Shown here in pieces: positions 1-23,909 of a stretch of 64,000 nt of DNA. The position numbers and the translations under genes were made by a program. The stretch comes from a virus. The stretch lies in the IMG/VR virus record IMGVR_UViG_3300042518_001860, positions 1-64,000 of that record. One strand, written 5' to 3'. Each line of letters starts with the position of its first letter. The first letter of the stretch is position 1. Under the pieces are notes generated by a model. It did not search any database. It was given only the letters and a program-made list of their open reading frames with translations, and was not told where the DNA came from.

Positions 1-145
1 CCGACTCGACCGGGGCCGGGGCCGGGGCCGACTCGACCGGGGCCGGGGCCGGGGCCGACTCGACCGGGGCCGGGGCCGGGGCCGACTCGACCGGGGCCGG
101 GGCCGGGGCCGGGGCCGACTCGACCGGGGCCGGGGCCGACTCGAC
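1..145. repeat. Tandem repeat CCGACTCGA+(CCGGGG)2-4, coding
   Basis: Directly visible; units of 9 and 6 nt preserve the frame of the minus-strand ORF. Confidence 0.9.
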
Positions 146-196
146 GGTGACGGGGGCAGAACGGTGGGGAGAAGAACGACGGGTGGATCGCGACAT
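1..196 (-). CDS. 5' part of a gene with Pro/Ala-rich (VES-APAPAP)n repeats; runs off the window
   Basis: Manual translation from ATG at 196: MSRSTRRSSPHRSAPVTVESAPAPVESAPAPAPAPVES...; AAGGTGA SD-like sequence upstream; absent from the ORF track because it is open-ended. Confidence 0.7.
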   Translation of the reverse strand, partial: MSRSTRRSSPHRSAPVTVESAPAPVESAPAPAPAPVESAPAPAPVESAPAPAPVESAPAPAPVES

Positions 197-255
197 GGTC
201 TTTTCACCTTCGCGCGCAATGTGGAAGGGGAGCGCGTATGACCCCTTTACGCATA

Positions 256-281
256 CCCATGGGGGAACCTTCCCCCATGGG
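256..281. other. Perfect inverted repeat CCCATGGGGGAA-CC-TTCCCCCATGGG
   Basis: 12-bp arms with a 2-nt spacer, upstream of the minus-strand gene. Confidence 0.8.
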
Positions 282-561
282 CTTGCGCCGCGTGCTTTAA
301 GCACACCCTTTTTGTAATCGCTACCACGGCCCCGCGCAAGGCTTGCGCGATCTTTTTTTTCGACTTTCGTAAATCCGCAACAATTCCACGGATTTAGCGT
401 CGGCCCGCGCTCCGACGAAATCCCCATTTTTTCCCCATTTTCCCCCTGATTCGTGCCCGTGCCCCGCCCGAGAGGCGCCCCGTCAAGCTCGCCGATTTAG
501 ACCCTACGTGCCAGGTAGTGTGAGCTTTGTGAGTTTTACGGGGTCTGGACGCGTCGAAACT

Positions 562-577
562 TGGCATGGCCGTTGCT
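562..577 (+). promoter_or_regulatory. sigma54-like -24/-12 motif TGGCATGGCCGTTGCT
   Basis: Matches TGGCAC-N5-TTGCW with exact GG-N10-GC spacing. Confidence 0.55.
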
Positions 578-628
578 ACGCGTGCCGCACGTTCCTTTAG
601 GCGCGTAAAGGGGCTCCGCGGTTTAGGT

Positions 629-663
629 TGGCACGCGGCGTGCTAATGCAACTGTTATGCCAA
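629..663. repeat. 35-bp direct repeat, copy 1, containing opposed sigma54-like motifs
   Basis: TGGCACGCGGCGTGCTAATGCAACTGTTATGCCAA, identical to 870-904. Confidence 0.9.
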
Positions 664-869
664 TATCGGTTTTTGTGCAGTATTTGTTAAATTTTACAGT
701 GGCAACTCGACTTGCCGAATCGCGTTAAACGGCCGTTTCGGGGTCGGGGCATATCAGGGGCGCGGAGCACGCTCCGCGCGCCTTTACGGGCCCTTAGCGG
801 CCCGGCAATCGGCATAGAAGATCTGAAACATTTATCAAGTTTCAAAGCTCCGACTTGTCATTTGTCCAG

Positions 870-904
870 TGGCACGCGGCGTGCTAATGCAACTGTTATG
901 CCAA
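870..904. repeat. 35-bp direct repeat, copy 2
   Basis: Identical to 629-663. Confidence 0.9.
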
Positions 905-1212
905 ATGGGGTGCCCTTGCCGAGCGGCCCACCTCCCTCCAGGAGGGGGGGGCTACCAAGGGGATATGTAGAGGTGGACCAATGGGATGTGTGTAGGGGGA
1001 TAAATGGGATAAAGGGGATGTGTGGAGGTGGTCGGGAGGTGACTGGTTATCAATGCGATTACGTGGTTTGAGCATTATCGAGGTGATAACCTCCTCGCCA
1101 CCCTCCGCCGCCCAGCTACCTCGAGGTGCCCGGGGTGGCACCGCGGCTCGAGGACGGTGCATCCCAGGCTGGGGTAGCCCCACGCCCGCCCGGTCTCTAC
1201 GGGTACCCTCAT

Positions 1213-1285
1213 GATTCTTTTTTGTTTGGAAATTTTTTTATTTCTTTTGTTTTTATTTTATTTTTTATAGAATTTTTTTTATTTC
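1213..1285. other. Strongly T-rich tract
   Basis: Runs of T in an otherwise high-GC sequence. Confidence 0.85.
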
Positions 1286-1358
1286 AAACTGTTGCGATTC
1301 CTCGGGGGTTTTTTCATAGGTGGCCGCGGAGGACGCATTTTTTGAGGTGTGAAAGGCG

Positions 1359-1387
1359 TTGACAATTGTTGCAACCACGTCTATGGT
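1359..1387 (+). promoter_or_regulatory. sigma70-type promoter
   Basis: TTGACA-N17-TATGGT upstream of the first + strand gene. Confidence 0.7.
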
Positions 1388-1416
1388 GGGAGCTACTCCC
1401 AGAAAGGAACTGCGAC

Positions 1417-1851
1417 ATGCGCCCCCACACCCTCAGCTTCTACAACCCGGAGAGTCGTGAGCTCTATGTCTGGATGTACTATCCCCCCGCCCTGAATCTG
1501 GACCGGTTCACTTTTGCCCGCCGCGCCGTGGATGTTCCCCTCGAGGCTCGAGAGCTGGTCGACGATGGGCTGAAGACCCTCCTCACCCGGGAGTTGAGGT
1601 ACGAGCTCGAGTTCAACATCGCCGAACTGACTCAGGAGCAGCGCGGCAATCAGACCCTGGCCTTCAGCGCGCTGCATGGGTTGGAAACGGCGTCGATCAA
1701 GGTCACCATCACCGGCCTGAAGAAGCTGCTCGAGGATCTTCCGCCCGACCGGGACCTTCCGCCCGAGCTCACTTTCTACAACGTTCAGCGGGTGAACCCT
1801 GATATTGCCCCCTGGCGAGATCCGCCCCCCACAACTGGAGTAACCCGATGA
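1417..1851 (+). CDS. Hypothetical protein
   Basis: ATG at 1417 after AAAGGA; codon bias typical of the genome. Confidence 0.75.
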   Translation: MRPHTLSFYNPESRELYVWMYYPPALNLDRFTFARRAVDVPLEARELVDDGLKTLLTRELRYELEFNIAELTQEQRGNQTLAFSALHGLETASIKVTITGLKKLLEDLPPDRDLPPELTFYNVQRVNPDIAPWRDPPPTTGVTR

Positions 1852-2941: not shown

Positions 2942-3378
2942 TGCCGCTGTTCAAGGTGGGCGACATCCTCTACCGCGCACGCGCTCGCGTCTCCTACACC
3001 GAGTTCGGGGACCGCGTCGTGATCCGCTATGAAACGTGGCACGTCGTACGGACGACGAAGTACATGATGTGGCTCTCGACCCACCCTCTGGTGCAGCCCT
3101 GGGAGGTGCTGCCCGGACACGGCTCAGACAACTGGGTTGAGCTCACCGAGGCTGAATACGATAAGCGAGTCCGAGAGCATTGGGGCTCTCTCAGACGTTG
3201 TGCGCAACATGCGCGCGTCAAGTTCGCATGGCGGACGCAGCTCGAGGCGATGAACAGCCTCGCCGCTCGCACGCACTGGCGCGTCATCCACGCCGAACAC
3301 AGGCTCGCCGAAGCCAAAGCAATCAAACAGAAAGTCGACTCGCTCATCCGCGAGCAGTCCCTCCAGGAGTTCAAATGA
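2938..3378 (+). CDS. Hypothetical protein (FKVGD-type N-terminus)
   Basis: ATGA overlaps at both ends. Confidence 0.7.
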   Translation: MMPLFKVGDILYRARARVSYTEFGDRVVIRYETWHVVRTTKYMMWLSTHPLVQPWEVLPGHGSDNWVELTEAEYDKRVREHWGSLRRCAQHARVKFAWRTQLEAMNSLAARTHWRVIHAEHRLAEAKAIKQKVDSLIREQSLQEFK

Positions 3379-4190
3379 ATAGCACCCACCGACTCGACGA
3401 TCCCCGCCGCCTTCTGGCCGAGACGCTCTCTGTTCCCAACGCTCACCCCGTCTTCATCACCGGCGCGGGGATCTCGATTGCCTCCGGTATCGCCCCCTTC
3501 CGCGGCACCCCGGACGCGGTCTGGGAAAAGGACGTTACGGAGAAGGGGACCTTCGACTACTTCCTCTGCCATCCTGTCGAGGCGTGGCAGTGGCTCCTCT
3601 CCGCCCTGGCTGGGGCCACCGGGGCAAAACCCAACCCCGCCCACCTTGCCCTCGCCCGCCTGGAGGAGAAGCTGGAGGACCGGATGACGCTGATCACCCA
3701 GAACGTCGATGGCCTCCATTTGGCGGCGGGGAGTAAGCGGTGCCTCGAGGTCCACGGCAACATGCGGCACATGCGCTGCGTCGATAGGTTCTGCTCCAGT
3801 GGTTTTGGTGGGACTCGAGGCCTCCTGCCCTGGGACGAGGTGCAGGTCTCGAGGTTCTTGACCAACCCTTGCCGCGAGACCTTGCCCCGCTGTCCGTGTG
3901 GTAAGATCCTCCGCGCGCACGTCCTCTGGTTCGACGAGTGCTACGATGGTCACGAGGACTACCAGTTTGTGCAAGCCATCAAGGCCTTCAACAAGATGAC
4001 CGCGCTGATCTTCATCGGCACCTCGTTTGCAGTGGGCTTCACCGAACTTGCCAAGCTCGCCGGGTACCAATACCGGGTGCCCATGTTCGTCATCGACCCT
4101 CACGACTCCCTGCGCTTCCCTGGGCTGCATATCCAGGCGGCGGCGGAAGACTTCCTCCCGCATCTCGCCGCTGCAGTTGAAGTGGGCTGA
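3375..4190 (+). CDS. Sir2-family NAD-dependent deacylase (CobB-like)
   Basis: TGAGISIASGIAPFRG, PNPAH, ITQNVDGLH, EVHGN, Cys-pair Zn ribbon, VLWFDE, IGTS; GGAG SD. Confidence 0.92.
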   Translation: MNSTHRLDDPRRLLAETLSVPNAHPVFITGAGISIASGIAPFRGTPDAVWEKDVTEKGTFDYFLCHPVEAWQWLLSALAGATGAKPNPAHLALARLEEKLEDRMTLITQNVDGLHLAAGSKRCLEVHGNMRHMRCVDRFCSSGFGGTRGLLPWDEVQVSRFLTNPCRETLPRCPCGKILRAHVLWFDECYDGHEDYQFVQAIKAFNKMTALIFIGTSFAVGFTELAKLAGYQYRVPMFVIDPHDSLRFPGLHIQAAAEDFLPHLAAAVEVG

Positions 4191-5095: not shown

Positions 5096-5341
5096 TTGAG
5101 GCTGGAAAGTGGTCGTCGAAATTTTCCTCGTAGAGGGGAGAAAGTCGGTCGCTTTGCCCGAGTAGAGATTGACTGCCCAGACGAGTCAGCGGCACGAGAG
5201 CTACTCCACGCTGCACTTTTCAAAGTTCGTGGGCAGTTTCAGAACTATGTAAGAGATGTAATCCACACCCTTACAGGTAGTCTTCAGGACACAAACCACC
5301 TCATCTACCTCGATGATTTGCGGACGCAGGACTTATCATGA
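5096..5341 (+). CDS. Hypothetical protein
   Basis: GAGGAGG SD before TTG. Confidence 0.55.
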   Translation: MRLESGRRNFPRRGEKVGRFARVEIDCPDESAARELLHAALFKVRGQFQNYVRDVIHTLTGSLQDTNHLIYLDDLRTQDLS

Positions 5342-5976
5342 ATCTCGCAACGATCCTGGGCAGACACCCATGCCCAAAATCCCTCATCTCCAGCCTTGAG
5401 GCCACCTTCCAGCCGGGACTCCAGGTAGAGTGGACACCTGAAGCTCAGCGTCAGGCACTCTCCTCCTTACCCCTGCGGCGACAATTCGGTCTCTTGGTTG
5501 AGGATGGAGTGCTGCCGCTCTGGAGTATGCGTAGATGGAACTTCTCATGTGAGAACCTGAGTGACCTCAACTTGACCTGTGGGGACCTATCCCGCGCGAA
5601 CTTGGATTCCACCAACCTGAGCCTGGCGTTTTTGGTGTGGACCAACCTCAACTTTGCCAGCATGCGTGGCGCGGACTTGTCCGGAGCTCACCTCGGCGGG
5701 GCGAGATTGCTTGGAGCAGTTCTGACAAAGGCCTCCCTCCGCAGTGCCAACCTGTACGGTGCAGACCTTAGAGGGGCCGACCTCAGTGGGGCGGATCTGT
5801 CTGAGGCGAACTTGTTTGAAGCCGACCTGCGAGATGCGAATCTCGAGGGCGCCAACTTGGCCGAGGCTGATTTGAGGGGGGCAAGCCGCACCTCGTATGA
5901 CCCGCCAGTTCCTGGGTGGGCTCTTCAGGTCCAGACTTCTGCGGAAGACACACGACTTCTTTTAATTAAGAATTAG
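5338..5976 (+). CDS. Pentapeptide-repeat protein, paralog of 2041-2613
   Basis: [23 protein letters not shown]; shares EWTP and C-terminal DPPVPGW-like motifs. Confidence 0.9.
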   Translation: MNLATILGRHPCPKSLISSLEATFQPGLQVEWTPEAQRQALSSLPLRRQFGLLVEDGVLPLWSMRRWNFSCENLSDLNLTCGDLSRANLDSTNLSLAFLVWTNLNFASMRGADLSGAHLGGARLLGAVLTKASLRSANLYGADLRGADLSGADLSEANLFEADLRDANLEGANLAEADLRGASRTSYDPPVPGWALQVQTSAEDTRLLLIKN

Positions 5977-21587: not shown

Positions 21588-21962
21588 ATGGACTCGATCA
21601 ACGACCAAGCCCGCATCCTGCTCGAGTTGAAGGAGATTCTGTCCCGACTCGAGAATTTGCAGCGCAGTAGTGATAAAACTACCGCCGCCATCAATGGACT
21701 CGACCTCGAGACCCGTCTTCAAGAAGTTCTACGGGAATTCGGCCGTCAGGCCGACCGAACCCTTCAGCACATCGAGACTATCGAAAAGGGTCGGGCTGTA
21801 GAACGGGAGATGCGTGTCAGCATCGCCAGCAAGGTGGCGGCAGAACTCTGGCAGAAGGGCGGCCAGTATATTGTGTTGGGCGCCTCTCTTCTACTTGTTG
21901 GTGCAGTTGCCAAATATCTTGGTCTGCCTGTACCCTTCTTCGGTCAGATCGGGGGACCATAA
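21588..21962 (+). CDS. Coiled-coil protein with C-terminal TM helix (holin/XhlA-like architecture)
   Basis: Heptad-rich N-part; YIVLGASLLLVGAVAKYLGL. Confidence 0.6.
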   Translation: MDSINDQARILLELKEILSRLENLQRSSDKTTAAINGLDLETRLQEVLREFGRQADRTLQHIETIEKGRAVEREMRVSIASKVAAELWQKGGQYIVLGASLLLVGAVAKYLGLPVPFFGQIGGP

Positions 21963-22396
21963 TGCAGCCCAGCCGTGTCCTCCTTGTTGAGGATGATGAA
22001 GACGACGCCTTCCTCAGCAAGCGCTCACTGAAGAAGGCTATGGATGCTCGCGGTATCACATACGATCTCGAGCATGTCCGGAATGGGAAGGCGGCCCTGG
22101 ACCGCCTTTTTCAAGGTGAGGTCCTGAGAGCGCCAAACTTCGACCTTGTCCTTCTCGACTTGATGATGCCCATCATGGATGGGAAGGAGACGCTCGAGGC
22201 TATTCGACAACATCCGCAGGGGTACAAGATCCCTGTGGTTGTTCTGACTACCAGTGACAACCATCGAGAGATCGACTTGGTCTGGGGGCATGGAGTCTCG
22301 GCCTACATCCTTAAGCCTGTAACTGCGGCCGACTACGCCTCGATCATGGACTCCACTGGAACTTTGTTCCTCCGGCACAACCGCTCCGTACGTTGA
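21962..22396 (+). CDS. Single-domain response regulator (CheY-like, Rcp1 type)
   Basis: LLVEDDEDD, LLDLMMPIMDG, VLTTS, ILKP: all catalytic residues present. Confidence 0.95.
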   Translation: MQPSRVLLVEDDEDDAFLSKRSLKKAMDARGITYDLEHVRNGKAALDRLFQGEVLRAPNFDLVLLDLMMPIMDGKETLEAIRQHPQGYKIPVVVLTTSDNHREIDLVWGHGVSAYILKPVTAADYASIMDSTGTLFLRHNRSVR

Positions 22397-23322
22397 ATCC
22401 TGTCTATCTGGTTGTCCGCCCCTGGAACGCGCTCTCCGTCTTGGCGGCAGCAGCCACCTCCATCGCTTTGCTCACCGAAGCCCAGGTGAAGGAGATCATC
22501 CTCCTAACCATTATGTGGGCGGCCACTATGTTGACTGCTGTTCTAGAACACCGTAGGGCAGCACTCCGAACGCGGGAGGCCCTGACTCAGAGCCTGACGC
22601 TGCAGAAGCGCAATGAGGACCTTCAGCGAGCAAATTCGGCCCTCGAGCGATTTACCTCCGTGGCAGCACACCAAATGCGCTCCCCTCCCCGCACGATCAA
22701 GGGCCTGGCTATGACTGCTCTGGAGGAGTATGGGGACCGGCTACCAGTGGAAGCGCGGGACCTCCTCGAGAGCATCATGCGGCGCGCAGACAATTTGCTC
22801 GAGGTGATCACAGTGCTGCACGAAATGGGCATGCGCCATTCGGCGTCGATCACGCTCCGCCCGTTGGAAGTCGCAAAGATGATCCCCTCTGCGAGGGGAC
22901 GTGTGGGAGCTCAATGGCGAGGTGAGATTGACTGCAGTGAGCTTCCCCCGTGGCTCGAGGTGGTGGGTAACGACATCCTTTTTGTGGAGGTGCTGGCCAA
23001 CCTCATCGAGAACGGGTGGAAGTTCAACGAGAGTCCTGTACCAACCGTGAGATTCTCCGGTTGCGTTGAGAACGGATTCTGTCGACTCCGAATCGCAGAC
23101 AACGGGATTGGGTTGTCGCCCAGTACAACTGGGCTATTTCAGCTTTTCCGCCGACACACCGACCGCTTCCCTGGGACAGGGGTAGGCCTTGCTCTCGTCC
23201 ATCAGGCGGTTGAGAAGATGGGTGGAAAGATCTCGGTGGTCAATCCCAGACAAGGGGAAGGGGCGGCCTTCGAAATCGAGCTTCTTGCCCCCAAAAGTTC
23301 CGGGAAACGCGACGTCTTCTGA
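22393..23322 (+). CDS. Membrane sensor histidine kinase (HisKA + HATPase_c)
   Basis: Two TM helices, coiled coil, AAHQMRSP, NLIENGWKF, DNGIG, LFQLF, GTGVGLA. Confidence 0.93.
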   Translation: MNPVYLVVRPWNALSVLAAAATSIALLTEAQVKEIILLTIMWAATMLTAVLEHRRAALRTREALTQSLTLQKRNEDLQRANSALERFTSVAAHQMRSPPRTIKGLAMTALEEYGDRLPVEARDLLESIMRRADNLLEVITVLHEMGMRHSASITLRPLEVAKMIPSARGRVGAQWRGEIDCSELPPWLEVVGNDILFVEVLANLIENGWKFNESPVPTVRFSGCVENGFCRLRIADNGIGLSPSTTGLFQLFRRHTDRFPGTGVGLALVHQAVEKMGGKISVVNPRQGEGAAFEIELLAPKSSGKRDVF

Positions 23323-23885: not shown

Positions 23886-23909
23886 CGAGTGCAACAATTG
23901 GAGTAGACT
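23882..23909 (+). promoter_or_regulatory. sigma70-type promoter with reversed operator-like motif
   Basis: TTGACG-N16-TAGACT; TGCAACAATTG in the spacer. Confidence 0.55.

Follow-up and report, generated by a model that had tools for sequence, protein, structure and literature searches.

The left end of this viral genome raises the question of which protein reads a 35-bp element that is present there in two copies, and of what use this element is to the phage. The window analyzed here comprises the first 64 kb of a linear IMG/VR virus record of 96,716 bp, which is estimated to be 61% complete. In a sequence-only reading of this DNA it had been proposed that the element consists of two sigma-54-type promoters facing each other. 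Among the bacterial sigma factors, sigma-54 alone combines tight DNA binding with silence until an ATPase activates it. Re-reading of the sequence confirmed the duplicated 35-mer with its opposed motifs split by AA, and likewise the additional fifth motif upstream, which is an exact match to TGGCAY-N5-KTGCW on the + strand (Table 1). In each 35-mer the + strand site reads TGGCACGCGGCGTGCT and the - strand site TGGCATAACAGTTGCA, with 2 bp between their -12 ends. The two copies lie 241 bp apart, and their flanks share no similarity.

Table 1. Features at the left end of the window, with strand where one applies.
Feature	Position	Strand	Details
Probable start of a leftward gene, Ala-Pro-rich 9-aa repeats	1..197	-	cut by the contig end; ATG 197, AAGGTG 8 nt upstream
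Gene-free stretch	198-1416		about 1.2 kb; holds all sigma-54-type sites
Two terminator-like hairpins with T runs	292..360	+	
Single sigma-54-type -24/-12 site TGGCATGGCCGTTGCT	562..577	+	exact TGGCAY-N5-KTGCW match; T precedes
35-mer copy 1 TGGCACGCGGCGTGCTAATGCAACTGTTATGCCAA	629..663	+ site 629-644, - site 647-662	face to face, 2-bp gap AA
Perfect 12-bp palindrome AAACGGCCGTTT	727..738		between both 35-mers
GC-rich palindrome	756..783		13-nt arms, 12/13 paired; inverted repeat search
35-mer copy 2 TGGCACGCGGCGTGCTAATGCAACTGTTATGCCAA	870..904	+ site 870-885, - site 888-903	identical to copy 1, 35/35 bp
Three imperfect direct repeats, GGGGATGTGTGGAGGTGG type, iteron-like	952..1031	+	repeat family search
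T-rich tract	1211..1295	+	about 85 bp, within a 60% G+C genome
Sigma-70-like promoter	1359..1387	+	TTGACA-17-TATGGT, just 5' of the first rightward gene
First gene of the long rightward block	1417..1851	+	144 aa, without known family; ATG 1417

A scan for the strict motif TGGCAY-N5-KTGCW gave five matches in the window, which all fall into the 343 bp between positions 562 and 904, and in the full record of 96,716 bp not a single further match was found outside this segment. Dinucleotide-preserving shuffles of the window contained 0.33 +/- 0.64 strict matches, and none of 100 shuffles reached five. The assignment of the motifs to the sigma-54 type was thus upheld, as they exceed what chance would give and also follow the sigma-54 consensus at positions that the strict motif leaves free. 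The base preceding the site is a T in four of the five cases (the + site of copy 2 is preceded by a G), position -20 is occupied by G in three sites and by A in two, and the centres of the pairs are A/T-rich. The N5 spacers of the two halves are unrelated (GCGGC versus AACAG), and the symmetry of the element is confined to the sigma-54 core positions.

In copy 1 transcription is predicted to start at about 655 from the + site and at about 636 from the - site, in copy 2 at about 897 and 877, and each of these points lies inside the partner site. Each motif would cover the start of the other, and joint use by two holoenzymes is therefore unlikely, in line with the mutually exclusive occupancy suggested at the outset. 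Two halves face outward, in copy 1 the - site and in copy 2 the + site, and are directed at the flanking genes; for the inward-facing halves the path to a gene runs first through the rest of the cluster. The predicted start points are 440-760 nt away from the nearest start codons, and all five sites are followed, in the direction in which they point, by a gene at a distance of 440-840 nt. The possibility that the 35-mer is a stem-loop, either as a terminator or as the border of a promoter-stem-loop cassette, was ruled against on the basis of its single-strand fold (-7 kcal/mol, z = -0.73 versus shuffles), in which pairing is limited to letters of the core. For the predicted transcripts 655-792 and 897-1235 the RNA folds were also unremarkable (z = -1.85 and -1.62), and Rfam and tRNA scans of the site region yielded nothing above threshold.

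The sequence-only reading had placed the sites in the only divergent intergenic region of the window. This is plausible, with the reservation that the left gene is only probably leftward: a + frame ending at 317 is a possible alternative, and sequence searches returned low-complexity matches only. The full record contains at least one further divergent junction near 73.2-73.6 kb. The left contig edge is formed by a 27-nt tandem repeat at 1-157, equivalent to nine residues and Ala-Pro-rich on the - strand, which probably broke the assembly there. On the right side, the 144-aa gene has near-identical copies as its sole relatives, and the same gene is found on a 125-kb contig. The portal and terminase genes are located at 25-29 kb of the window, with the site cluster 24 kb upstream of the gene of the large terminase subunit (terL), and the genes for a DnaB-like helicase and a family A polymerase were found at 76-82 kb of the record. 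The iteron-like repeats followed by the T-rich tract have an origin-like look, but the replication genes are 75 kb away. A histidine kinase of the HisKA/HATPase type and a separate receiver domain are encoded next to a thymidine kinase, at 21962-23322.

To see how widespread the arrangement is, viral contigs and prokaryote genomes were scanned. Opposed pairs with a 2-bp gap were present in at least 119 viral loci (G+C 0.30-0.65 among the matches listed), and opposed sigma-54 box pairs in general recur in hundreds of phage contigs. In prokaryote genomes the same 2-bp-gap pattern was detected at 18 loci in 596 Gb. Three of these are one conserved coding stretch in Lachnospiraceae without rpoN, two are perfect hairpins and several more are lone pairs; the prokaryote pairs with further sites nearby are located in rpoN-positive genomes, in small bins that resemble phage contigs, or in incomplete bins. 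The face-to-face design is phage-specific. The viral loci of the first scan (119 listed, 1.07 Mb) contain 557 strict sites versus about 4 expected, which means that single sites and arrays accompany the pairs. The literature that we searched does not describe opposed sigma-54 sites in phages.

As to conservation in related phages, the design itself recurs in other viral loci, whereas no region orthologous to that of the window was found: the flanking 144-aa gene yields near-identical copies only, and the terminase relatives at 56% identity are fragments, none of them with a site. A relaxed scan of metagenomes with the 35-mer returned five unrelated class members. No close cultured relative of this phage was found, and cultured relatives of pair-bearing contigs (Pelagibacter, Roseobacter and Alcaligenes phages) contain zero sites. 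One pair-bearing locus, L026, encodes a terminase that is 64-66% identical to those of the Pelagibacter phages HTVC115P, HTVC103P and HTVC104P (L240, L241). It has an opposed pair upstream of terL, whereas its cultured Pelagibacter relatives are without any sigma-54 site, which indicates that the element was gained or lost within a lineage.

For a consensus test we collected 872 distinct sites from phage loci and looked at the positions that the strict motif leaves free. They follow the extended sigma-54 consensus, which has a pyrimidine at -27, G or a purine at -20/-19, T at -15 and A/T after the GC: position -27 was a T in 64-72% of the sites and position -20 a G or A in 94-96%, position -19 was a purine, position -15 a T in over 90% and position -10 an A or T. 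The extended consensus was equal in single and in paired sites. Sites with in vivo binding in Salmonella look similar (PMC3844500). The motif is unchanged across phage loci of 30-65% G+C among the matches listed, and this constancy across very different phages points to a conserved host protein and not to co-evolving phage proteins. The most likely reader of the sites, judged by their sequence, is sigma-54. Using a domain search, neither a Sigma54_activat domain nor a sigma-54 DNA-binding domain was detected in this record. A set of 50 pair-bearing records, of which 19 have a completeness of 90% or more, likewise gave no sigma-54 DNA-binding domain and no activator ATPase domain.

The arrangement of the sites was analyzed in loci from four scans (3.2 Mb). 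Opposed neighbours are 1-5 bp apart and rare beyond this distance, and the picture for opposed sites was no different when gaps of 0-24 bp were scanned without bias; so variable a gap speaks against a rigid dimer. The preferred gaps are 5-10 (with a peak at 10), 20 and about 30 bp between back-to-back neighbours, and 9-13 and about 20 bp between tandem neighbours. The fork junction of sigma-54 forms immediately downstream of the -12 element (PMC5095919); in an opposed pair the -12 ends coincide, and hence the fork-junction segment is the shared centre. Eight complete genomes that carry terminal repeats have their sites gathered in one tight cluster or in two, with as many as 13 sites within 280 bp, and not distributed in front of operons; the window agrees with this picture. 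In some phages identical opposed pairs are repeated in tandem arrays, with six copies at a 41-bp period in G016:C1:49383-49662 (the record of L021) and four pairs at a 52-63-bp period in L090:5837-6037.

Genes in these other loci were called as the longest ORFs, and because such calls are crude the orientation statistics are noisy. On this basis about 50% of the intergenic sites are located at divergent junctions, which make up 13% of the junctions. In co-directional gaps 47 sites have the same direction as the genes and 48 the opposite one; the isolated sites are divided 15 to 10 and the clustered sites 63 to 71. Site direction in co-directional gaps is random relative to the neighbouring genes.

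An all-against-all comparison of the ORFs within 3 kb of the clusters revealed one widely shared family, the large terminase subunit (Pfam Terminase_6N/6C, PHROG 2). It was found in 126 loci, which fall into 38 groups with no protein in common at an identity of 70% or above. The cluster is located upstream of terL in all 38 groups, at a distance of 150 to 2,750 bp, although the 38 cases are not independent events, because the groups share ancestry. Examples among the viral loci L003-L400 are L009:2657-6329, L022:544-3099 and L044:1691-6169. The sites upstream of terL are oriented toward the gene in 73 cases and away from it in 81, and the nearest site points toward it in 16 and away in 22. In three more complete phages, whose terminases are different ones, the cluster is likewise placed upstream of the terminase.

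Compared with bacterial RpoN -24/-12 promoters such as glnA, pspA and the divergent zraP/hydH (PMC3844500), the phage sites have the same core TGGCAC/T-N5-TTGCW, the same GG-to-GC spacing and the same flanking preferences. They differ in being opposed, overlapping on the -12 side and clustered at one locus, in a phage that is without an activator, and in a direction that is, at the level of the class, unrelated to the genes. Moreover, the known divergent sigma-54 pairs stand back to back with the enhancer between them, whereas the phage pairs stand face to face. Closer in one respect are the intragenic or non-productive sigma-54 sites that ChIP has revealed in E. coli and Vibrio. For such sites in Salmonella, also identified by ChIP, interference, antisense RNA or occupancy has been proposed (PMC3844500). 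Like the phage sites, these non-productive host sites have a position or direction that does not fit a downstream gene (PMC3844500), but they are scattered, single and chromosomal, and the phage sites form dense intergenic clusters and palindromic pairs.

Phages are also known to use bound proteins as landmarks for packaging, as with IHF at cosB of lambda and with T7 RNA polymerase, which pauses at the concatemer junction. In both cases a host or transcription protein marks a unique position near the terminase, which is comparable to the sigma-54 clusters in front of terL; in the window, in contrast to this, terL is distant from the cluster. We know of no link between sigma-54 and packaging.

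The explanation we prefer, although we give it somewhat less than an even chance, is that the 35-mer is an orientation-free docking site for the host sigma-54 polymerase, or for sigma-54 itself, which would act as a landmark, a sponge or a barrier. It is built on the observed sequence match, the recurrence in phages, the clustering, the independence of orientation and the absence of an activator. Since the position of the sites is conserved and their direction is not, and since no activator travels along with them, docking fits better than classical promoters. The two 35-mers and the site at 562 would represent the only sigma-54 site cluster of the phage, placed at the head of the rightward gene block. 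The half-sites of each pair abut at the -12 ends and have in common the short A/T stretch on which sigma-54 builds the fork junction, from which we infer that one polymerase could be accommodated in either direction and never two together. As the record of the phage encodes no activator, the bound polymerase would mostly be parked as a closed complex, and the value to the phage would lie in occupancy and not in directional transcription. The occupied site could serve as a landmark or barrier at a major junction of the genome. Alternatively it could work as a sink, by which sigma-54 would be drawn off the stress and defence promoters of the host as the phage DNA multiplies; the sigma-54 sponge already considered in the sequence-only reading is compatible with the evidence. 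Binding by sigma-54, parking and a benefit for the phage are predictions made from sequence. A role as sink or landmark alone explains neither the preference for opposed pairs nor the fact that the copies are identical through their spacers.

In a more general form, which is possible but on balance doubtful, many phages of sigma-54-bearing bacteria would keep one such orientation-free docking cluster, often just upstream of the terminase. The parked polymerase would then be a landmark or barrier in packaging, in the handling of genome ends or in the separation of gene arms, or a sink that silences stress and defence functions of the host. If true, this would be a use of sigma-54 without transcription. 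If many phages converged on opposed boxes without an activator, either host signalling would be tapped in an undescribed way or a parked polymerase would be used beyond the making of RNA. Either outcome would add to the list of host factors borrowed by phages, and the terminase operon is a concrete place to look.

The same sites could also be working enhancer-dependent promoters, a reading with genuine support at this locus that we nevertheless regard as unlikely. A host activator, perhaps bound at 756-783, would fire the outward-facing sites into both arms and the inward partners would give antisense or interfering transcripts, which would make the locus a bidirectional, signal-gated start region or switch. 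The near-perfect sigma-54 cores, the probably divergent region with its outward halves pointing at the flanking genes, and the enrichment of sites at divergent junctions across phages are in agreement with promoters. The GC-rich palindrome at 756-783, with a distance of 92 bp to copy 1 and of 86 bp to copy 2, may be an enhancer or regulator site or a hairpin. It is located roughly 120-130 bp from the predicted starts of both outward-facing sites, and enhancers usually lie 80-150 bp upstream of a sigma-54 promoter (PMC3844500). An activator was found neither in the record of this phage nor in the 50 others. Some activators without DNA-binding domains act on any closed complex (PMC3844500), and the histidine kinase and receiver of the phage could conceivably feed a host activator of the NtrC type. 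The kinase, however, has no specific family match or kinship to the kinases that partner sigma-54 activators. Promoter function also does not account for the random direction of the sites in co-directional gaps and upstream of the terminase, or for the long distance from the predicted starts to the nearest start codons; opposed overlapping promoters would occlude each other, and the rightward gene has a sigma-70-like promoter of its own. The left/right switch wired to host signalling, which had been suggested before, is hypothetical, with no activator found in these records and a site direction that across phages is unrelated to gene direction.

Two further explanations are weaker than docking and promoter function, and each of them is improbable. 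One is an operator for a dimeric protein of the phage, or for another protein of the host, with a half-site that resembles a sigma-54 box by chance. This would be in keeping with the two-fold symmetric unit of 34-35 bp, its exact repetition and the restriction of pairs to phages. The symmetry, however, ends at the sigma-54 core and does not extend to the spacers, and the range of gaps between the halves would be intolerable for a rigid dimer; for these reasons the symmetric protein-binding site named earlier as an alternative has lost ground. Single sites, moreover, are as common as paired ones and have the same extended consensus, the motif is constant across very different phages, and only packaging protein families are widely shared near the clusters. 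The other explanation takes the repeats as recombination sites or cassette boundaries, at which the 241-bp unit would be lost, gained or swapped. An exact direct repeat of 35 bp with unrelated flanks would suit this role, and in the comparisons L046/L063, L109/L046, L017/L075 and L094/L018 the similarity ends or shifts its level at or near the pair. Mosaic breaks, on the other hand, are common at any intergenic region of phages, and the sigma-54 sequence itself would be left unexplained. A recombination site had been put forward in the sequence-only reading as well, and here it is countered by the 96.7 kb of the record (about 61% of the genome), which contain no match to Phage_integrase or Resolvase, that is, to a tyrosine or serine recombinase.

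The rightward block downstream of the cluster opens with small genes, among them pentapeptide-repeat proteins and a SIR2 protein; two pentapeptide-repeat proteins and one SIR2-family protein are encoded at 2041-2613, 3375-4190 and 5338-5976 of the window. The sigma-70-like promoter in front of this block overlaps the recurrent motif AAYTGTTGYA, for which 10 matches were counted versus 0.76 expected. In most cases this motif makes up or adjoins the -35 part of sigma-70-like early promoters, and in the window it is located at 1364, 4219, 7852, 10216, 13247 and 16670 on the + strand and at 23899 and 24425 on the - strand. The - half of the 35-mer (AACAGTTGCA) is one base off this motif.
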